The position numbers were made by a program, and so were the translations under genes. This document shows, piece after piece, positions 11,430 through 45,389 of a DNA stretch of 45,389 nucleotides. The notes beneath the pieces are model-generated. The model was not told where the DNA came from, did no database searches, and worked only from the letters and a program-made list of their open reading frames with translations. Numbering within the stretch: the stretch's first letter is position 1; every line of letters starts with the position of its first letter. Source of the DNA: a virus; the IMG/VR virus record IMGVR_UViG_3300042923_001252, positions 1-45,389 of that record, one strand, 5' to 3'.

Positions 11430-11526
11430 CTTGTTCCCCTCCAATATTCATTAAAGAATGTTTAAAATTAAATTAGTCGATGTTTTTGATCCGCCTCCTT
11501 TCAGGGCTTGTCTCTTCGGAGAAGGA

Positions 11527-11694
11527 TTAAACCTTCTCACCTTTGGCAGCTAAATCTTCAATGATTTTCCAGCCCACGCTATACATCGCTTTGACACGTC
11601 GCTCATTTTCCTCATCGGAAATATCTGGTTCAACGACGTGGATAACTGTATTACCAATGTGATAGGTCTCTGCATACTCTGGTTGTTTTTTCAT
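11527..11694 (-). CDS. Small hypothetical protein (55 aa)
   Basis: ATG 11694 lies about 10 nt after GGGAGG. The longer track version overlaps the cro-like gene. Confidence 0.45.
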   Translation of the reverse strand: MKKQPEYAETYHIGNTVIHVVEPDISDEENERRVKAMYSVGWKIIEDLAAKGEKV

Positions 11695-11755
11695 GATGCG
11701 CATACCTCCCACATTATCCTTATGCTTAAGGTTGGAGTGGACGGCCCTTGTTAAT

Positions 11756-12013
11756 TCAATCATTGATGGAAATATTACCTTTTGGTAATTCATCAATACA
11801 ATAAAACAATTGCTCAAATTTTAATTCAGGAAAGGCCGTGAGAATTCCCGAAATAAACTTGCTGCCTGGATTCCTTTTACCATTTAAAATACGGTTAACA
11901 GTGCTATTTGCAACACCGATAAGGTCTGCAAATTGACTATCACTAATCCTCTTCTTTTCGAGATAGTCTCGTAAGAATTCAGATCTAACAGCGATATTTG
12001 CTGTTTGTTCCAT
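11756..12013 (-). CDS. Cro-like XRE-family HTH regulator (first gene of the lytic operon)
   Basis: ISDSQFADLIGVANSTVNRILNGKRNP HTH. Divergent from the repressor gene across a 190-bp operator region. Confidence 0.8.
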   Translation of the reverse strand: MEQTANIAVRSEFLRDYLEKKRISDSQFADLIGVANSTVNRILNGKRNPGSKFISGILTAFPELKFEQLFYCIDELPKGNISIND

Positions 12014-12203
12014 TTTGTTCGCCGCCTATTCCCATTTGGTAATTTCCTTATGGGAATAATATATCACTGCATTTACCTTTTGGCAACACTTTTACATGAA
12101 CTTTTTTGATATTTATTGCCTTTTGGCAACGTCTGATATTAAATAAATATATTCGATATACAGTATTTTATATTGAATAATCGATTTTGAGAGGCTGAAT
12201 TTA
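12014..12203. promoter_or_regulatory. Genetic-switch region with three evenly spaced operator-like dyads and divergent promoters
   Basis: TTRCC-TTTT-GGYAA dyads at 12029..12042 (degenerate), 12073..12086 and 12116..12129, spaced 44 and 43 bp. The leftward promoter has -35 TTGCCA (12081..12086, minus) and -10 TATATT (12058..12063, minus) with a 17-nt spacer. Inverted repeat ATTCCCAT/ATGGGAAT lies at 12028/12050. Confidence 0.65.
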
Positions 12204-12596
12204 ATGAGCGAGTTTGGAATGTATATAAAAAAAATAAGAGAATCAAAAGGATTAACCCTTAACCAAACTGCATTGTATTCAGGGATAAGCGCTGCTCAGC
12301 TGTCACGAATCGAAAATGGAAAAAGAGGTGTTCCAAAGCCTCCTACAATTAAAGCACTATCTGAAGCATTAAAAGTTAGTTATGAAGTACTTATGGAAAA
12401 AGCAGGATATATTGAGGACATAAATAATGATAGATCTGAGCTAACGGCCGATAGTGAACTTAAAAGTCTAATGAATGATCCTGACTTTATGGTTGCCTAT
12501 AAGGAATATCCTGGTAGTCCGGAGGAAGCAAAAGAGGATTTGATAGGCTTCCTCAAACTAATCAAGGAACGTGACGAACGTAAAAGAAAGAAGTAA
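12204..12596 (+). CDS. CI-like XRE-family repressor (ImmR-type)
   Basis: IKKIRESKGLTLNQTALYSGISAAQLSRIENGKR HTH with a C-terminal extension. Heads the plus-strand lysogeny operon that ends in the integrase. Confidence 0.85.
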   Translation: MSEFGMYIKKIRESKGLTLNQTALYSGISAAQLSRIENGKRGVPKPPTIKALSEALKVSYEVLMEKAGYIEDINNDRSELTADSELKSLMNDPDFMVAYKEYPGSPEEAKEDLIGFLKLIKERDERKRKK

Positions 12597-12630
12597 AAAA
12601 TTTTATCATCGTAATAGGTATTTTGAATCA

Positions 12631-12644
12631 CGAACGGACGTTCC
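12631..12644. promoter_or_regulatory. LexA (Cheo/SOS) box upstream of the membrane-protein/ImmA unit
   Basis: CGAACGGACGTTCC fits the Bacillus consensus CGAACRNRYGTTYC at every position. Confidence 0.55.
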
Positions 12645-12778
12645 TGAAAACTATTCTATATGGCGTCCATCAATGTTTACTTCAGTAACGTTAACTTTCA
12701 CTTATAGGAAAATGTGAATCCAAAATACTCTAATTAACGTGAATCTTAAAGACTATAAAAAGGTTAGGAAGTGAATAA

Positions 12779-13138
12779 ATGTCAATTAAAGATGTTAGAG
12801 CAGGTATTTCACAGGCCCAAATGAATGAAGATTCGATCAACTATCTGCTTGGAGAAATTCTAATTATTTCAATCATTACTGGAGTTATAACCAAATCTTG
12901 GTGGGTATTTGGTGCTGTTCTTATTGGTTTATTTGTTGGTTTTATGTTTAAAAAAATTGCTATTTTCTTGATTATTTTATTCAGTATATCGTGGTCCACA
13001 ATAGGCTTTATAATTGGCTTCCATATTGGAGGATTTGGAGCTGCTTTTGTAATCGGATTTATCATTTTAGCAATTTCTGCAGGTCTTCATTTTTCTGCGC
13101 TTGAGTGGTTGGACGACATTGGATCAAATGAGGGATAA
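12779..13138 (+). CDS. Four-TM membrane protein (possible superinfection exclusion)
   Basis: 119 aa with four hydrophobic segments rich in G/I/F. RBS is AGGAAGTGA. Confidence 0.65.
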   Translation: MSIKDVRAGISQAQMNEDSINYLLGEILIISIITGVITKSWWVFGAVLIGLFVGFMFKKIAIFLIILFSISWSTIGFIIGFHIGGFGAAFVIGFIILAISAGLHFSALEWLDDIGSNEG

Positions 13139-13251
13139 AAATATCAATAATGCTTAAAATTTATTAAATGTTAAACTGGTCATTTGCCCTTTGGGGCTTT
13201 TATTTAGACTTTAAAAAGGAACATACGTTCACATCATTAAGGGGATTATTC

Positions 13252-13863
13252 ATGTACAGTAAAACTGATCTTGAAGATTATGTTGAAACTCTATATCGCT
13301 CAATCGGGATTAATCACCCGGATCACCTAATTATGAATGAGGTCGCACAGCGATTAAATATAGAAGTTATTCATTCTGAGTATAAAAGCCAAGCATTAAG
13401 AATTAAAAATCGAATGATAGTTAACTTAAACTGCAATTTAAAAAGTTATGTTGACCAGTGGGAAATATTTGGACATGAGATATTTCATGTGTTAAAGGAT
13501 ACTGGTAATCAATCTCTTATTCCCGTACTGCTAAGAGAACTACGGGAATCAAAAGCAAAAAACTTTGCCCTTCACTTCTGTATCCCGACGTTTATGCTAG
13601 AAAAAATCGACTGGAAAGAAGAAAATACAATTCCGTTCATTGCAGAAAGATTTCAGGTCACTTATGCCTTTGCCACGGAACGACTTGAACAGTATAGAAA
13701 TCGAATTATTCAAAGCCAAACAGATGATTTAGTTGCAGTCACTGAACCATCAGCGTCTTATCACATAGATAACTGTTCATACGAAACTAGACGGATCATT
13801 GAGCAATTAAGAATTCAACTTAATCGAAAGGGTGAGAAACTTGAATTCAAAAGTTTATTATGA
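13252..13863 (+). CDS. ImmA/IrrE-family zinc metalloprotease (anti-repressor protease)
   Basis: HEIFH (HExxH) within WEIFGHEIFHVL. Size and context (downstream of the XRE repressor) match ImmR/ImmA pairs. ATG 13252 follows AAGGGGA. Confidence 0.8.
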   Translation: MYSKTDLEDYVETLYRSIGINHPDHLIMNEVAQRLNIEVIHSEYKSQALRIKNRMIVNLNCNLKSYVDQWEIFGHEIFHVLKDTGNQSLIPVLLRELRESKAKNFALHFCIPTFMLEKIDWKEENTIPFIAERFQVTYAFATERLEQYRNRIIQSQTDDLVAVTEPSASYHIDNCSYETRRIIEQLRIQLNRKGEKLEFKSLL

Positions 13864-14221
13864 CAGCGATATTGAAGGAAATCTATATCCGCTCTGGTAC
13901 ACAGTTGAGGGAAATATTGATTGGGACAGCACAAGACTCTTTCTACAGATCAACACACCGTTCGAACGAATTGACAGCATCCAGTTTGATGACGAGATCA
14001 TAGGATGCTCTGTGTTCGCTCAGGAACTCATTGTGAACCAGAACAAGCCCAATCAATTAGGAATCAACCTCGAGGCTGTCAGAAGGAGAATTAGCGAGAA
14101 TATTGAGCCATACAAGGTTGAACGGCTTATTATTCAAGTAACAGATATCGAAGATCTGCTGCAAATAGGTAGAAAATTATTCGAATGGCACAGTCATGAG
14201 AACAGATTCTTAGATTTCTAA
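13832..14221 (+). CDS. Hypothetical protein
   Basis: GTG 13832 or TTG 13841 (after AAAGGGTGA). Overlaps the immA end. No motif and no internal Met. Confidence 0.5.
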   Translation: MRNLNSKVYYDSDIEGNLYPLWYTVEGNIDWDSTRLFLQINTPFERIDSIQFDDEIIGCSVFAQELIVNQNKPNQLGINLEAVRRRISENIEPYKVERLIIQVTDIEDLLQIGRKLFEWHSHENRFLDF

Positions 14222-14387
14222 CACTTGAAAAAACATCCGAATTATATCTAGGATGTCCATATTTCCATTTATACAAGGTTAAAATACATTCACACTGCTG
14301 AATTAAATCTAATGCCTTTATGAATAAACCGAATCATACTAAATAAATATTGCATTATTCCGATAAATATGTTAAGGAGATGATACT

Positions 14388-14981
14388 ATGCGACTAAAAC
14401 TTTTTAATTTAGTGAAATTGCATAAGGATATGCTAATAAACCGAGTAACCTACGATGTCTTTGATTACACAAACAATAATATCGAGTTCAGTATTTTGTT
14501 TGATATAGAGACAAAGCCTTATTTTAACCTAACAATTATTAAGAAGAAAAGCGATCTCTTTTTGACATTCGATATTGAAAATGGTTATATAATTGAAACA
14601 AACATATCTAAAGATAAATACAATCTACTAAAAAGAATGCTGGAAATTAATCCCCCAACAAGTAACCCCTTCTCAACATTCAATTTCTTCCAAGATATTA
14701 ATTCAAAAATTCCCAGTTGCATTTCTCGTAAGCCACTTTCTAAACATACGATTGCTAGAATTTATTCTGTTGAAGAACCGGATTTGGTTTATATAAAAAC
14801 TCTTATCAATTGGCAGGCACATCCTCAATCAGGAAGGCACTGCTCTCCAGAAAATAAGGAGAAAACAAAAAAATTATATCGTGAATTGTATGAACAGATC
14901 AAAGATAAAGATATTAGCGTTAAATATACAGATCAGAATATCATGGCAGAAGATGAAGCGATCACTCGTTATTTAAAATAA
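14388..14981 (+). CDS. Hypothetical protein (AT-rich cargo gene 1)
   Basis: 197 aa; ATG follows AAGGAGATGA. No recognisable motif, TM segment or signal peptide. Confidence 0.6.
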   Translation: MRLKLFNLVKLHKDMLINRVTYDVFDYTNNNIEFSILFDIETKPYFNLTIIKKKSDLFLTFDIENGYIIETNISKDKYNLLKRMLEINPPTSNPFSTFNFFQDINSKIPSCISRKPLSKHTIARIYSVEEPDLVYIKTLINWQAHPQSGRHCSPENKEKTKKLYRELYEQIKDKDISVKYTDQNIMAEDEAITRYLK

Positions 14982-14998
14982 CTTTGGGGGAAATATTA

Positions 14999-15832
14999 AT
15001 GATTCAAAGAATTATGGAGTTCTTCGCTGAAATATTTAAGCATGATAGAGAATTGGAAAGCAATCATACACCAAATTTTCAATCTGAAGATGGAAATCGT
15101 AGAAAATTATTCGAAATTGAACCATTGCCACACGGATATTCACCGACAGTTTTAAAAAGATATAGTATCCACGCGAAGTTCACAGAAACAAAAAGAAAAC
15201 GCCGCCTTACTTTGTTCGCTCTTGACGAAGAACAGGCAATACTTAAAGCAATGGAGAAAGGATTCGAAGAACCGTTTGATCTCACGGAAGAACCAGAAAT
15301 ACCCACTCCGAACCAGGTTCATTTCGCTGAAGATCTGGAAATTGACATCCCCGAAAATTGTTCCAAAATCGACCTTTCATATTTAATTACACGCAGAAAA
15401 GGAGATCCAAAACACCCAAATATTGAATTAATGGATTTTGCAGGCGGTCGTGGACTACTCTCATCAAGATACATAGGTAAGAAAAGCCTTTATAACAGTC
15501 TCTTTAGCTCACTGAAATCCGAAGATAAAGTTGCCTTTTTTATTTTTTGCATCTATAGATACCTCTCTGACGACCGGAGAGGGAATCTTGACAGTCATCC
15601 ACAAAGAGAAATATTTTATAAATTCGCCGAAGAAATGGTAAAAAATCAATCCTTTATCAAATCGATGCTTAAATATAAAGGAAAGGATCTTAGATTCTTT
15701 GGAACAATCCGAACTAATGAAATTGAAATATGTGGAGGAAGTACAAATACAATTGCCTATAAAAAAGCATCACTTTATTTAAGAGATCATTTCGATCTAC
15801 CACTCACACGTACAAAAGAGTTTGTAGACTAG
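14999..15832 (+). CDS. Hypothetical protein (AT-rich cargo gene 2)
   Basis: ATG 14999 lies 6 nt after GGGGGAA (the track starts at TTG 14984). 277 aa with no recognisable motif. Ends 84 nt before the integrase ATG. Confidence 0.6.
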   Translation: MIQRIMEFFAEIFKHDRELESNHTPNFQSEDGNRRKLFEIEPLPHGYSPTVLKRYSIHAKFTETKRKRRLTLFALDEEQAILKAMEKGFEEPFDLTEEPEIPTPNQVHFAEDLEIDIPENCSKIDLSYLITRRKGDPKHPNIELMDFAGGRGLLSSRYIGKKSLYNSLFSSLKSEDKVAFFIFCIYRYLSDDRRGNLDSHPQREIFYKFAEEMVKNQSFIKSMLKYKGKDLRFFGTIRTNEIEICGGSTNTIAYKKASLYLRDHFDLPLTRTKEFVD

Positions 15833-15916
15833 GTGTCATATCCTTATATCAAACAAGTAAATAACCACATCTCCCCTCTTTATCTGTATAATATGGATAA
15901 TGGAGGGGATTTCATT

Positions 15917-17491
15917 ATGGATCGATACGCCATTTATTTGAGGAAAAGCCGCGCTGATTTGGAAGCTGAGGCGCGCGGTGAAGGCGAAACATTGGCAAAG
16001 CATAAACGTGTGCTATTCAGGTATGCCAAAGATAATAAGCTAAATATTGTTAAGCTATATGAGGAAGTTGTCTCTGGGGAAAGTGTTATTCATCGTCCTA
16101 AGATGATTCAGCTGCTTAATGATGTAGATGATGATATGTATGATGGTGTTTTATGTATGGATATGGACCGGCTCGGGCGCGGTGATATGCAGGATCAAGG
16201 ATTGATCCTGAACACCTTTAAGAACTCGAATACGAAGATAATTACGCCTCGCAAGACTTATGACCTCAATAACGAAATTGACGAGGAATACAGTGAATTT
16301 GAGACGTTTATCGCACGACGCGAGTTAAAGATTATTACTCGTCGGTTACAAGGTGGTCGACTTGAGACAGTACAAGAAGGTTGGTACATCGGATCCTATC
16401 CACCACTAGGCTATAGTATAAAGTACCTTGACAAAGGAAAACGTACTCTAGAAGAAAACGAAAAACAATCACCTATAGTTCGATTGATTTTTGAGTTGTA
16501 TACCTCTGACGATCCAAGCAAACGACTAGGTAGCGCGCGAATCGCTAATAAATTAAATGAACTTGGGTATGAAAAATATACTGGTGGACCATTTAATAGT
16601 TGGGACGTTCTAAATATTATTAAAAACGCCGTATATGCTGGCCGTATTCAGTGGAAAAGGAAAGAGATTAAGAAGTCAACCGAACCCGGTAAGAAGAAAG
16701 ACACACGTACTCGCCCACGTTCTGAATGGATTGACGTAAAAGGGAAACACGAACCTCTAATAAGTATGGAAGTTTATCAAAAGGCGCAAGATATATTGGC
16801 TAATAGATCTCATCCCCCTTTTCACTTGAGCGGTATTAAAAATCCTTTAGCTGGTATCTTAAAGTGTGGCAATTGTGGTTCGACAATGGTACTTAGACCG
16901 TATACAACACAAAAGCCCCACCTGATGTGCGCCAAACAAAAACAGTGTCACCTAAAATCAACACAGTTTGATCTAGTCGAACAGCGATTATTAGATTCAC
17001 TTAATGAATATCTTGAAAGCTATAAAAATCAATGGCTTGAAACAAAACCAACCAAAAAAAGTGAACATACTCTAGAAATGTGGCATAACACATTGAATGG
17101 ACTGAAAAAAGAAAATGACATGATACAAACACAACAAACAAAATTATTTGATCTCTTGGAAAGAGGCATATATACCGAAGAAATATTTATAGAACGATCA
17201 AATAATCTGGCTGAACGAATTGAGACAAATACAAATGCAATAAAAAAAGCTCAAGCTGAACTTATCGATGAGGAGAAACGTCAACAAGCTCGAAATGATA
17301 TCATCCCAACTGTTGAACGAGTTCTTGACTTGTATCCAAAAACTGATGATCCTGCTCAAAAGAACATGTTGCTTAAATCTGTTCTCGAAAAAGCAGTGTA
17401 TTTTAAGTCAAAAGGCCAATTTAAGGATGATTTTAAACTTGTGATCTATCCAAACATCAAGCGTAGCAAGGGTTTTCAAGCACAGATATAA
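15917..17491 (+). CDS. Large serine recombinase (SprA/TP901-type phage integrase)
   Basis: Resolvase-type N-terminus AIYLRKSRADLE..GETL..H (catalytic Ser), recombinase domain, Cys-rich CGNCGS..C..C zinc ribbon and coiled-coil C-terminus. ATG 15917 follows GGAGGGGA. Confidence 0.9.
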   Translation: MDRYAIYLRKSRADLEAEARGEGETLAKHKRVLFRYAKDNKLNIVKLYEEVVSGESVIHRPKMIQLLNDVDDDMYDGVLCMDMDRLGRGDMQDQGLILNTFKNSNTKIITPRKTYDLNNEIDEEYSEFETFIARRELKIITRRLQGGRLETVQEGWYIGSYPPLGYSIKYLDKGKRTLEENEKQSPIVRLIFELYTSDDPSKRLGSARIANKLNELGYEKYTGGPFNSWDVLNIIKNAVYAGRIQWKRKEIKKSTEPGKKKDTRTRPRSEWIDVKGKHEPLISMEVYQKAQDILANRSHPPFHLSGIKNPLAGILKCGNCGSTMVLRPYTTQKPHLMCAKQKQCHLKSTQFDLVEQRLLDSLNEYLESYKNQWLETKPTKKSEHTLEMWHNTLNGLKKENDMIQTQQTKLFDLLERGIYTEEIFIERSNNLAERIETNTNAIKKAQAELIDEEKRQQARNDIIPTVERVLDLYPKTDDPAQKNMLLKSVLEKAVYFKSKGQFKDDFKLVIYPNIKRSKGFQAQI

Positions 17492-17530
17492 AGTGAAGGG
17501 TAACACAATACCCTTCACTTTATATCTGTG
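17481..17530. repeat. Perfect 22-bp inverted repeat with a 6-nt spacer overlapping the integrase stop codon (candidate attP and/or terminator)
   Basis: CACAGATATAAAGTGAAGGGTA-acacaa-TACCCTTCACTTTATATCTGTG. The arms are exact reverse complements. Confidence 0.85.
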
Positions 17531-17720
17531 TTTCTAGTTATCTTCATTAATGAACGTTAAAAACGTACATATGTATGGAGAAGAATGGATTGGATATGAA
17601 GCCAAATTTGAATAAAGATAATAATTGTGAAACATTAATCATAGCTTTTTAACTCGTAAACTAACCGTTAGCAAACAAGTGTTATAAATTTATATCGGGA
17701 TAAAATATCCTCTTATATTG

Positions 17721-17756
17721 AAAAAACTCATCCACGAAATCAGGATGAGTTTTTTC
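17721..17756. terminator. Bidirectional rho-independent terminator
   Basis: AAAAAACTCATCC-acgaaatca-GGATGAGTTTTTT. Sits directly after the stop of the minus-strand WYL gene and faces the integrase operon. Confidence 0.8.
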
Positions 17757-17937
17757 ATGCACTTCGGACAATGCGCCTAGCAAGAATATTACCTAATTGA
17801 AAAATACGAACTTGCCGGCGCGTGTAACAATATGCTTTTACATATGTCTCTTTTGCTTCAATCACGCGTATGTTTCGCTGAGTTATTTTTCCATTCTTCG
17901 CCTGATAAATAATTTCTATTACATCGCCATTTCTCAT
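17755..17937 (-). CDS. Stand-alone WYL-domain protein (60 aa)
   Basis: IEIIYQAKNGKITQRNIRVIEAKETYVKAYCYTRRQVRIFQLGNI follows the WYL signature (..Y....G..T.R.i.....yl.AYC..r...R.F.l..I). ATGA overlap with the upstream wHTH gene. Confidence 0.65.
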   Translation of the reverse strand: MRNGDVIEIIYQAKNGKITQRNIRVIEAKETYVKAYCYTRRQVRIFQLGNILARRIVRSA

Positions 17938-18134
17938 GATGAGATCCTCACAGTACGATTCATGTTTTCCTCAAAATCGATCCGTCCTTCTTTTTTCAAA
18001 CGATCTAAATGATGCTTGACTGTACTTGTTGATTTTAGTCCTACATATTCTCCGATTTCCTTTATAGACGGTGCGTATCCGTGTTTTATGGTTAGGAACT
18101 CTATCGCTTCTATGATTAATTCTCTTCGATTCAT
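17934..18134 (-). CDS. LexA-N-terminal-like winged-HTH protein lacking the S24 peptidase domain
   Basis: GYAPSIKEIGEYVGLKSTSTVKHHLDRLKKEGRI matches the LexA DNA-binding domain pattern. Only 66 aa. ATG 18134 follows AGAGGTGA. Confidence 0.7.
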   Translation of the reverse strand: MNRRELIIEAIEFLTIKHGYAPSIKEIGEYVGLKSTSTVKHHLDRLKKEGRIDFEENMNRTVRISS

Positions 18135-18160
18135 CTTCATCACCTCTATCTCAATTATAA

Positions 18161-18212
18161 CGAACATATGTTTTTATTTCCAGTATAAAAAGAACGTTTG
18201 TTCGTGTATAAT
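18161..18212. promoter_or_regulatory. Divergent promoter region with two LexA (Cheo) boxes and a TATAAT -10
   Basis: CGAACATATGTTTT (18161..18174) matches the ideal CGAACATATGTTCG at 12 of 14 positions. AGAACGTTTGTTCG (18191..18204) has a perfect GAAC-N4-GTTC core. Centres are 30 bp apart. TATAAT at 18207..18212 faces the polymerase gene. Confidence 0.75.
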
Positions 18213-18244
18213 AAAGACATTCTTCTTACCGGGGATGGTGAATT

Positions 18245-19471
18245 ATGGATCGAGTCATTTTCCTAGTTGATATGCAGACATTTTATGCATCTGTTGAAAA
18301 AGCAGATCATCCTGAATATCGTGATAGGCCGCTAATCGTCGCCGGAGATCCAAAACAGCGTAGCGGTATCGTATTGGCAGCATGTCCAATCGCTAAAAGC
18401 TGTGGTGTTCGAACGGCCGAGGGACTATGGGAAGCACGGAAAAAGTGTCCTCAAGCAGTTATCCGGATCCCACGTATGCAGCATTATATTGATGTCTCAA
18501 TCAAAATCACTTCAATTTTAGAGAAATTCACTGATTTGGTTGAACCATATAGCATCGATGAGCAATTTATGGATGTGACTGATAGTCAGCTTTTGTTTGG
18601 TAGTCCGTTCGAAGTTGCTCAGAAAGTACAGAAACAAATTGCAGATGAAATTGGCGTCTATGCACGTGTCGGCATTGGTTCGAGCAAGGTCATGGCAAAA
18701 ATGGCGTGTGACAACTTCGCCAAAAAGAACATCGATGGTATCTTTGAGTTGACGAAAAATAACATACAACAATATCTCTGGCCGCTCCCGATCTCAAAAA
18801 TGTTCAGCGTTGGCAATCGAATGGAAGAAAATTTAATCGGAATGGGAATCCGAACGATTGAACATTTGGCGAACAGTCCGATAAAACTACTGCAGGATCG
18901 TTGGGGAATAAATGGAACATTATTATGGATGACAGCCCACGGATTGGACTACTCTCCTGTTACGCCAAGCACATTTAAGGAACAGAAAGCCATCGGTCAT
19001 CATATGACTCTGCCGCGCGACTATGCCAATGAAAAGGATATTCGTGTGATTATACTCGAATTGAGCGAAGAGGTGGCGCACCGTGCACGAAAAAAGGGCT
19101 ATATGGGCAATGTTGTTGCTGCCGGAATAACCGGTCAATACGATCGACATACAGGATTTTATCGACAAATGAAGCTTGATACATCCACAAATTATGGATT
19201 AGACATTTACCATGCTGCCTTGCGATTATTTGCCGACAATTGGGATCGTGAGCCGGTACGTGGGGTATCCGTCACCCTCTCAGACCTCCAACCGGTATCT
19301 CCTTACCAGCTGGATATATTCGGAGAAGTTGAACGAAAAAGTCAACTAAGTGCTGCCGTTGATGCTATTTATAATAAATATGGCAAGACTGCCATTTACC
19401 GAGGAACGTCCCTATTACCAGGTTCTCAATGGGACAATCGTGCTGGAAAAATTGGAGGGCATTTTAAATGA
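18245..19471 (+). CDS. Y-family (UmuC/DinB/UvrX-like) translesion DNA polymerase
   Basis: VDMQTFYASVE and SIDEQFMDVT catalytic motifs. 408 aa, with palm/fingers/little-finger-sized architecture. Confidence 0.9.
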   Translation: MDRVIFLVDMQTFYASVEKADHPEYRDRPLIVAGDPKQRSGIVLAACPIAKSCGVRTAEGLWEARKKCPQAVIRIPRMQHYIDVSIKITSILEKFTDLVEPYSIDEQFMDVTDSQLLFGSPFEVAQKVQKQIADEIGVYARVGIGSSKVMAKMACDNFAKKNIDGIFELTKNNIQQYLWPLPISKMFSVGNRMEENLIGMGIRTIEHLANSPIKLLQDRWGINGTLLWMTAHGLDYSPVTPSTFKEQKAIGHHMTLPRDYANEKDIRVIILELSEEVAHRARKKGYMGNVVAAGITGQYDRHTGFYRQMKLDTSTNYGLDIYHAALRLFADNWDREPVRGVSVTLSDLQPVSPYQLDIFGEVERKSQLSAAVDAIYNKYGKTAIYRGTSLLPGSQWDNRAGKIGGHFK

Positions 19472-19824
19472 AGGCAAATAAGTTAACTAGAGGCGCTAAT
19501 TTACGGTGGGAATCAAGTCGAATGATGCTGCCGGAACACGTAGCAGCACTTAAAAAGCATACAATTAATAAGATGAAAATAGATTGTCCTATCCTCTCTG
19601 ATGACGAGCTAGAACAGATAGGTAATATGCTTAATGAAGCCTTACAAAGGCGCTATCCAGTTGAATTATCTTACTACAAGGACGGATTTATTAAGCAAAA
19701 GATTTGCTATATAAGCAAACTAGATCCGATCTACAAGCAATTGACGGTTAGCGATATGTACGGTCTTAAGTGGCAATATGACTTTAAAGATATTGTTGGA
19801 GTTCAGCTCAGCAATGATGTCTGA
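19468..19824 (+). CDS. YolD-like protein (UmuD-analogous accessory factor)
   Basis: LRWESSRMMLPEHVAALKKH motif typical of the YolD family. ATGA overlap with the polymerase stop. Confidence 0.75.
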   Translation: MKANKLTRGANLRWESSRMMLPEHVAALKKHTINKMKIDCPILSDDELEQIGNMLNEALQRRYPVELSYYKDGFIKQKICYISKLDPIYKQLTVSDMYGLKWQYDFKDIVGVQLSNDV

Positions 19825-45359: not shown

Positions 45360-45389
45360 CGCTCGTGCACCCGCTAGGGAGGCATGTTC
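45360..45389. repeat. Second copy of the 30-bp terminal repeat
   Basis: Identical to bases 1..30. Confidence 0.9.

Follow-up and report, generated by a model that had tools for sequence, protein, structure and literature searches.

Three independent gene families in a phage immR-immA-int lysogeny operon: an ImmA partner and two candidate defence or exclusion genes

The IMG/VR virus record IMGVR_UViG_3300042923_001252, analysed here over its whole length of 45,389 nt (hereafter, the window), carries a lysogeny operon in which three open reading frames (ORFs)—called A, B, and C—lie between the gene for an ImmA/IrrE-type protease and that for a large serine integrase. A, B, and C are three real, independent families, with A belonging to the ImmA module and with B and C standing as candidates for separate defence or exclusion functions. 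Both ends of the window share an exact 30-nt direct repeat (1-30 = 45360-45389), an assembler overlap, and the window is therefore probably a complete circular phage genome of ~45,359 bp. Every gene between 12204 and 17491 is on the plus strand, and domain searches agree with the gene order given in an earlier reading of the bare DNA (hereafter, the original prediction): an XRE repressor, a protein with four transmembrane (TM) segments, ImmA, ORFs A, B, and C, and the large serine integrase (gene int). The operon and its immediate surroundings are as follows.

11756-12013, minus strand: Cro-like helix-turn-helix (HTH) gene, divergent from the repressor gene
12204..12596, plus strand: XRE/ImmR-type repressor, first gene of the operon (Pfam HTH_3, 2.2e-14)
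12779..13138, plus strand: 119-aa protein with four TM segments (Kyte-Doolittle), cargo between the repressor and ImmA (phrog_15014, 4.3e-22)
13168..13863, plus strand: ImmA/IrrE-type M78 metalloprotease, an anti-repressor (Peptidase_M78, 4.2e-10; phrog_87, 1.4e-18)
13841..14221, plus strand: ORF A, ~126 aa, the ImmA partner, overlapping the ImmA stop codon (alternative start, GTG at 13832)
14222..14387, no strand assigned: spacer of 166 nt and 27.7% GC upstream of B, with a weak 6-bp hairpin and the AAGGAG ribosome-binding site of B
14388..14981, plus strand: ORF B, 197 aa, DUF6037 (PF19503, 1.4e-20), its start backed by homologue alignment
14999..15832, plus strand: ORF C, 277 aa, PHROG 20233 (E = 1.4e-10)
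15917..17491, plus strand: large serine integrase, closing the operon (phrog_95, 3.2e-95; domains Resolvase, Recombinase, Zn_ribbon_recom)
17482..17529, plus strand: hairpin that overlaps the stop codon of int, with an 8-nt loop on a perfect 20-bp stem

The hairpin at 17482-17529 is likely the terminator of the operon, and no other terminator-like site was found on the plus strand in the region 12005-17482 upstream of it. Thus, the interval from the repressor to the integrase reads as one lysogeny operon, and B and C, which lie on the repressor strand with no predicted terminator before the end of int, are probably made in the lysogen. Promoter-like sites occur at chance level (23 counted vs 23.9 expected), an Rfam search of 11500-18500 returned nothing real, and a DNA search of the phage collection with 12000-17600 gave no match. 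The original prediction was right in treating the three ORFs as real plus-strand genes and in their coordinates, apart from the start of A, for which TTG at 13841 is more likely than 13832 because homologues begin at query residues 4-8. It had also described all three as carrying no recognisable motif. Indeed, none of them contains a Walker A motif, an HExxH motif, or a TM segment, and PD-(D/E)xK, HNH, and HEPN motifs are not conserved in any of them, with loose regular-expression matches falling at non-conserved positions; B and C are nevertheless assignable to families, namely DUF6037 and PHROG 20233, respectively.

The original prediction had further taken all three ORFs to be inserted cargo. 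This holds for B and C: the distance from A to int is 1695 nt in the window (14222-15916), compared with at most 138 nt in relatives, indicating that an immR-immA-int operon has received B and C as an insertion. The 1695 nt are made up, in order, of the spacer, which is AT-rich, B, a gap of 17 nt, C, and a final 84 nt. A, by contrast, is coupled to ImmA, as described below, and does not belong to the insertion. The accompanying claim that the ORFs are richer in AT than the backbone was borne out for B (30.5% GC, at the 1st percentile of 600-nt windows) and for the spacer (27.7%), relative to 40.2% for the window, but not for A (39.6%) or for C, the GC content of which (35.9%) is no lower than that of its operon neighbours. 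The spacer hairpin noted earlier (ACATCC/GGATGT, 14233-14256) does exist, but it is no better than shuffled sequence (z = -0.86), with 36 of 200 shuffles folding as well, and has no T-run. A promoter-like match within the spacer (14225-14254, 9 of 12 positions) is not above chance; the 166-nt spacer may carry a promoter of B's own. The 17-nt gap between B and C, with its GGGGGA ribosome-binding site, was confirmed.

This region also contains an exact 17-nt direct repeat, GTAGAAAATTATTCGAA, the two copies of which are placed as follows.

14169..14185, plus strand: copy 1, in the tail of A
15099..15115, plus strand: copy 2, in the non-conserved N-terminal part of C

Both copies share the same codon phase, encode RKLFE, and bracket the spacer and B. 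This is the longest internal exact repeat of the window, a length of at least 17 nt being reached in 0.3% of simulated regions, and it may be a recombination joint.

To compare the three families across genomes, profile hidden Markov models of A, B, and C were run against all ORFs of 57 fetched loci, with ~6 kb of flank each. Twenty-eight of these loci hold C only, 17 hold B only, and 12 hold A only, the window alone containing more than one of the families. Their separate distributions are considered next, beginning with A.

Among 1.84 billion representative proteins, scanned in full with HMMER, 118 representative homologues of A were recovered, 110-130 aa in length, the named ones being from Sporolactobacillus, Brevibacillus, and Caenibacillus and all annotated as 'hypothetical protein'. 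A matches no Pfam or PHROG family, a Pfam scan of 53 members of its family gave nothing consistent, and tblastn detected no homologue among 50,697 deposited phage genomes. In each of 12 IMG/VR contigs, the A homologue abuts or overlaps the 3′ end of its upstream gene, which tblastn identified as an ImmA homologue in nine of the 12, and in at least eight of the 12 contigs an integrase gene follows directly, within 138 nt. The integrase after A is of the serine type at some loci (L036, L037, L039, L044) and of the tyrosine type at others (L033, L034, L040, L041, L042). Furthermore, one protein of 338 aa (P0149) is a fusion of ImmA and A, with residues 1-165 aligning with the window ImmA at 32% identity (E = 1e-17; HELGH motif) and residues 209-319 matching A; this fusion suggests that ImmA and A are functionally linked. 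Thus, A is no cargo gene but belongs to the ImmA module, as a conserved partner that is translationally coupled to ImmA.

The ImmR/ImmA module of ICEBs1 and of phages has been described as a two-component one (PMC8960796, PMC10233336). The window resembles it in having an XRE HTH repressor and an M78 HExxH protease (HEIFH, at residue 103) in the same order upstream of int and in one operon with it; it differs in that immA, in the window and in 12 related contigs, has a further small gene, A, at its 3′ end, making three. A would act with the protease, perhaps by sensing an induction signal or by controlling ImmA. If the interpretation favoured below holds, A may bear on how anti-repressor proteases of the ImmA type get switched on. 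An M78 fusion of another composition was seen at L019:7662-9032, where a single 456-aa protein has a Peptidase_M78 domain of the ImmA type fused to Fic; its gene belongs to a lysogeny module and lies immediately ahead of that for a serine integrase.

ORF B scores 74.6 bits against Pfam DUF6037 (PF19503), for which the cutoff is 28.8, with residues 4-188 corresponding to model positions 2-191 of 200, and its homologues are annotated as DUF6037 family proteins. An iterated search gathered 56 B-family proteins, one of which is a fusion of DUF6037 with RhuM (P0106). In a genome scan, members were found in Bacillota, Campylobacterota, Bacteroidota, and Pseudomonas; 56 plasmids carry B, viral contigs hold it at one distant locus only, and tblastn of the phage collection returned a single match, from a Ralstonia phage, at 26% identity. 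The AlphaFold2 model of B is confident (predicted local distance difference test score, pLDDT, 92.8; predicted template-modelling score, pTM, 0.84) and has an N-terminal beta-meander of five strands that leads into an alpha/beta part; a Foldseek search gave no match in the PDB (best E 0.18, template-modelling score <0.25), nor did a sequence-profile search of the PDB. The neighbourhoods of B homologues are listed below.

Helicobacter anseris: HsdR - B - AbiJ_NTD4/DUF7014 - HsdS - AIPR
Erysipelotrichaceae metagenome-assembled genome: HsdM ... B (disrupted) ... HsdR
Bacteroidota: N6_Mtase - Methylase_S ... B - AAA_21 ATPase
Ekhidna: Mtase/S fusion ... B ... AAA_21
Campylobacter: HipA_2 ... B - 136 aa - ThsB_TIR ... 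Fic - HsdM
Capnocytophaga: B - RVT_1
Cytobacillus: B adjoins a KAP NTPase gene
Paenibacillus: integrase-flanked island with HNH_2 and Mrr_cat genes
Tn916-like integrative and conjugative element (ICE; L045): Rep_trans - B - 95 aa - ArdA - ArdA - TcpE - VirB4
Enterococcus faecalis and Listeria plasmids: lone opposite-strand gene inside conjugation regions
Others: unremarkable chromosomal sites

B is thus an autonomous mobile gene that often lies in restriction-modification (R-M) or defence islands. If the defence reading set out below is true, DUF6037 is a candidate accessory gene of R-M islands. The HipA_2 gene near the B homologue of the Campylobacter R-M island lies at L048:4337-5191. The DUF6037 genes at L051:5968-6549, in the type I R-M locus of the Erysipelotrichaceae, and at L057:5887-6548, in Chryseobacterium, are each split into two ORFs and are therefore probably pseudogenes.

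ORF C aligns over residues 55-224 with PHROG 20233 (profile positions 17-188 of 212), and its family comprises 51 clusters, found at 34-49% identity and covering residues ~50-277. Its sources include gut Caudoviricetes, Dialister hominis, Sphingobacteriaceae, and Flavobacteriales, and it was found at 19 loci on viral contigs; tblastn was negative for C in the phage collection and in plasmids. C has no sequence match in Pfam, NCBIfam, or the PDB, a profile search of the PDB yielding chance matches only, and a Pfam scan of 38 members of the family gave nothing consistent, with lone hints of Rho_N and DUF3072 (E ~0.04) being non-significant. A literature search for DUF6037, PF19503, and phrog_20233 found no papers.

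Directly upstream of C, there is an HTH_3 repressor gene at L007, L012, L014, L015, L017, L018, and L023; a CI-like repressor gene of the HTH+Peptidase_S24 kind at L022, L026, L031, L066, and L067; and an M78 protease gene at L029. Downstream, the integrase is of the serine type at L007, L012, L018, L019, L023, and L029 and of the tyrosine type at L022, L031, L066, and L067. Other cargo often lies between C and the integrase, such as HipA_2 with DUF3037 (L012, L015) or the M78-Fic fusion (L019). At L066 and L067, which encode an identical C protein, the next slot is taken by Abi_2 in one and by Virulence_RhuM in the other. P0106, as noted, joins DUF6037 to RhuM; RhuM, Abi_2, and DUF6037 behave as interchangeable cargo. 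In Bacteroidota, C adjoins HEPN_AbiV, or a DUF4011 helicase gene together with PIN and Fic genes. At L068 and L069, C lies between the early and late blocks with no other gene on the same strand, and at L025, an exception, it adjoins the terminase gene. The HipA_2 gene, which is kinase-like, and the DUF3037 gene after it are a recurrent cargo of lysogeny modules beside C, at L012:7905-9591 and L015:7794-9459.

Most members of the family are predicted to be membrane-anchored: a TM anchor is present in 43 of the 51 homologues, C-terminal in 28 and N-terminal in 15. The eight without one include several that start with an MGFFxxxF-like sequence and some fragments. In the window C, a helix is predicted for residues 2-15, and its hydrophobic moment, 0.73, is a value reached by 0.3% of shuffles. 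The conserved core is a globular domain of ~215 aa, and the tail anchors, together with the positive residues that follow the N-terminal helices, suggest that it is cytoplasmic. Overall, C is a repressor-adjacent prophage family, usually membrane-anchored.

The AlphaFold2 model of C (pLDDT 89, pTM 0.79) has a small beta-beta-alpha-beta unit at residues 53-97 and a helix-loop-helix at 104-135, along with a helical domain that includes a beta-hairpin. Structural comparison of the B and C models, a check proposed together with the original prediction, gave no PDB fold match for either—for C, the Foldseek search of the PDB was empty (best E 0.45, template-modelling score <0.25)—and a single true relative for C in BFVD, an uncharacterised Caudovirales protein (E = 1.7e-8, template-modelling scores 0.50/0.67). 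Both models are confident, indicating that B and C are folded, selected proteins. Invariant residues of C include G160, Y165, Y186, S222, Y226, G228, and K255, with K161 nearly so, and the conserved motifs YRYLSDDRxGNL and GGSxNTIAYK match no nameable catalytic signature. A HEPN reading of the R-x5-H of C was ruled out, as the histidine position is occupied by H, S, or C among homologues.

Prophage lysogeny modules are a proven source of superinfection-exclusion (Sie) and abortive-infection (Abi) genes, and the interpretation that we favour, with confidence a little above even, is that B and C are two stacked, unrelated, single-gene defence or exclusion candidates expressed in the lysogen, and that A is part of the repressor-protease switch. 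B and C, together with the AT-rich spacer, would have been stacked into a normally tight junction between A and int, and each would protect the lysogen against other phages independently. C would be a globular domain on the cytoplasmic side, tethered to the inner membrane face in this phage by its amphipathic N-terminal helix, with most of its relatives presumably being tethered by an N- or C-terminal TM helix instead; from there, it could interfere with incoming phage DNA or trigger an abortive response at the membrane, as do lambda RexAB or the lactococcal Sie proteins. B would be a soluble defence-island protein of the type embedded in type I R-M loci. The defence/exclusion role of the original prediction is in keeping with the contexts of the homologues of B and C, and such a function would be plausible on gene context. 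The analysis shows that the genes are real, that their families are independent, where they are placed, and that the C family is mostly membrane-anchored; lysogen expression, defence function, and mechanism are features that we infer for B and C.

Several observations count against this interpretation. The PADLOC check suggested along with the original prediction did not reveal a known defence gene: A, B, and C have no match in PADLOC-DB v2 at E <= 1, and none in NCBIfam. B and C show no detected homology to characterised defence proteins and no match to a solved fold. The window C lacks the TM anchor typical of its family, and some sites of B are outside defence islands—in the Tn916-like ICE beside ArdA, on conjugative plasmids, and among ordinary chromosomal neighbours. 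In addition, the 17-nt gap between B and C would also suit a functional coupling peculiar to this phage, and gene association cannot separate defence from counter-defence or from other benefits to mobile elements. A, B, and C are context-based candidates, and many similar candidate families exist.

Counter-defence is the main rival, especially for B: B and/or C may be anti-restriction genes, for example, or genes serving the fitness of mobile elements, which we consider rather unlikely. B lies directly upstream of the two ArdA genes in the Tn916-like ICE, occurs alone on the 56 plasmids, including inside the conjugation regions of those of E. faecalis and Listeria, and is phage-borne here. However, anti-defence genes are normally found among early lytic genes or in the leading region of plasmids, unlike the repressor-strand lysogeny operon of the window, and an anti-restriction gene would be self-defeating in those chromosomal type I R-M operons where B is flanked by hsd genes. 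C, for its part, is kept behind the repressor in many prophages and adjoins known Abi genes. This same attachment to the repressor, which is directly upstream of C in at least 12 prophage contexts and is tighter than expected of ordinary cargo, might point to C as a lysogeny regulator that, for example, senses or modulates the repressor next to it from the membrane; this we regard as improbable, given that C accompanies plain XRE repressors, self-cleaving HTH+S24 ones, and the ImmR/ImmA kind, as well as both integrase classes, with no fixed partner, is repressor-free in Bacteroidota islands, stands as a lone gene at L068 and L069, and is separated from the repressor in the window by the 4-TM gene, ImmA, A, and B.

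The original prediction had singled out the locus as the place for a two-gene system, and B and C share a strand and an insertion junction, with the 17-nt gap and its ribosome-binding site between them, as one defence system made of, for example, a sensor and an effector or a toxin and an antitoxin would. Conservation of the pair did not bear this out: within ~6 kb, none of the 28 C loci has B and none of the 17 B loci has C, with profile models and tblastn in agreement. As the two were never co-located in these 45 B-or-C loci, B and C do not form a conserved two-gene system. The neighbours also vary with the family, viral contigs hold 19 loci of C compared with the one distant locus of B, and the GC contents are unlike (30.5% for B vs 35.9% for C), leaving a two-gene system a quite improbable explanation. 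It is harder still to credit that A, B, or C is the excisionase, or recombination directionality factor, of the neighbouring integrase, for which the position beside int is the sole support. A and C occur with serine and tyrosine integrases alike, B is mostly found without any integrase, C is usually membrane-anchored, A is fused to ImmA in P0149, and co-production of such a factor with the repressor in the lysogen would, from established phage biology, be expected to destabilise lysogeny. That the partners of C vary, and that C also occurs without a repressor or an integrase, makes both the regulator and the excisionase roles unlikely.

A more far-reaching version of the favoured interpretation, which is possible but on the whole doubtful, is that C is a new, widespread prophage immunity family with a fold absent from solved structures and that A is an unnoticed third component of the ImmR/ImmA switch. 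The anchors of C—N-terminal TM helix, C-terminal tail anchor, or amphipathic helix—would then be interchangeable, and C would have kept its place after the repressor across a range that runs from Bacillota to Negativicutes, whereas that of Bacteroidota lies in islands beside defence-type genes with no repressor ahead; A would couple an induction signal to the ImmA protease. If the favoured interpretation holds, C is a well-delimited candidate family, with a markedly conserved position, a swappable anchor, and a predicted fold without a solved relative. The C family and the coupling of ImmA with A are the most worthwhile leads from the locus.

In lambda, cI-rexA-rexB has an exclusion function directly downstream of the repressor and on the same transcript, acting at the membrane. 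C resembles rexAB in that its homologues are usually the second gene, after the repressor. However, C is a single gene, with no ion-channel-like polytopic partner conserved beside it, and neither B nor C has a PADLOC match at E <= 1, a database that presumably includes Rex models. Sie genes are located after the repressor gene and before that of the integrase, and their products are typically membrane-associated (PMC7693887); the ltp gene of Streptococcus thermophilus phage TP-J34, which the prophage transcribes, is likewise a lysogeny-module gene (PMC3952083). Both Sie proteins and Ltp are membrane-attached and protect against heterologous phages (PMC7693887, PMC3952083). The likeness of C to the Sie2009 type and Ltp is in its position between the repressor and the integrase in the window, which recurs in homologues, and in the predicted membrane attachment of most of its family, but no sequence similarity was detected, and C belongs only to a PHROG of unknown function. 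With respect to membrane association of the Sie type, TM segments occur in 43 of 51 C homologues, the window C has an amphipathic helix only, and A and B have no TM segment. Furthermore, Ltp is an external lipoprotein, whereas the C core is predicted to be cytoplasmic from the tail anchors and the positive-inside rule, and the window C has no TM segment.

For B, the nearest parallels are the accessory genes of type I R-M loci, for which PrrC and RloC are the paradigm of R-M-linked backup defence (PMC2610378). B homologues resemble these genes (PrrC, RloC, RhuM, Fic, and AbiJ-like) in lying between or beside hsdR, hsdS, and hsdM, and one of them is fused to a RhuM domain. B differs from PrrC and RloC, to which it has no similarity, in lacking both ABC ATPase and nuclease motifs, and no R-M genes adjoin B in the window. 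Because neither B nor C shows homology to these precedents, membership in their families is not claimed.

Two further features of the window were observed. Among the operon genes, the 119-aa protein with four TM segments (12779-13138), being small and membrane-embedded, is the one most like the lactococcal Sie proteins. Beyond the operon, a Y-family polymerase gene (IMS, 18245-19471) is followed by a YolD-like gene (19468-19824), and divergent from the IMS gene are a gene for a 77-aa protein consisting of LexA_DNA_bind only (17934-18167, minus strand) and a WYL-like ORF of 60 aa (17755-17937, minus strand). Together, the genes of 17755-19824 form a phage-borne translesion-synthesis cassette with its own small regulator.

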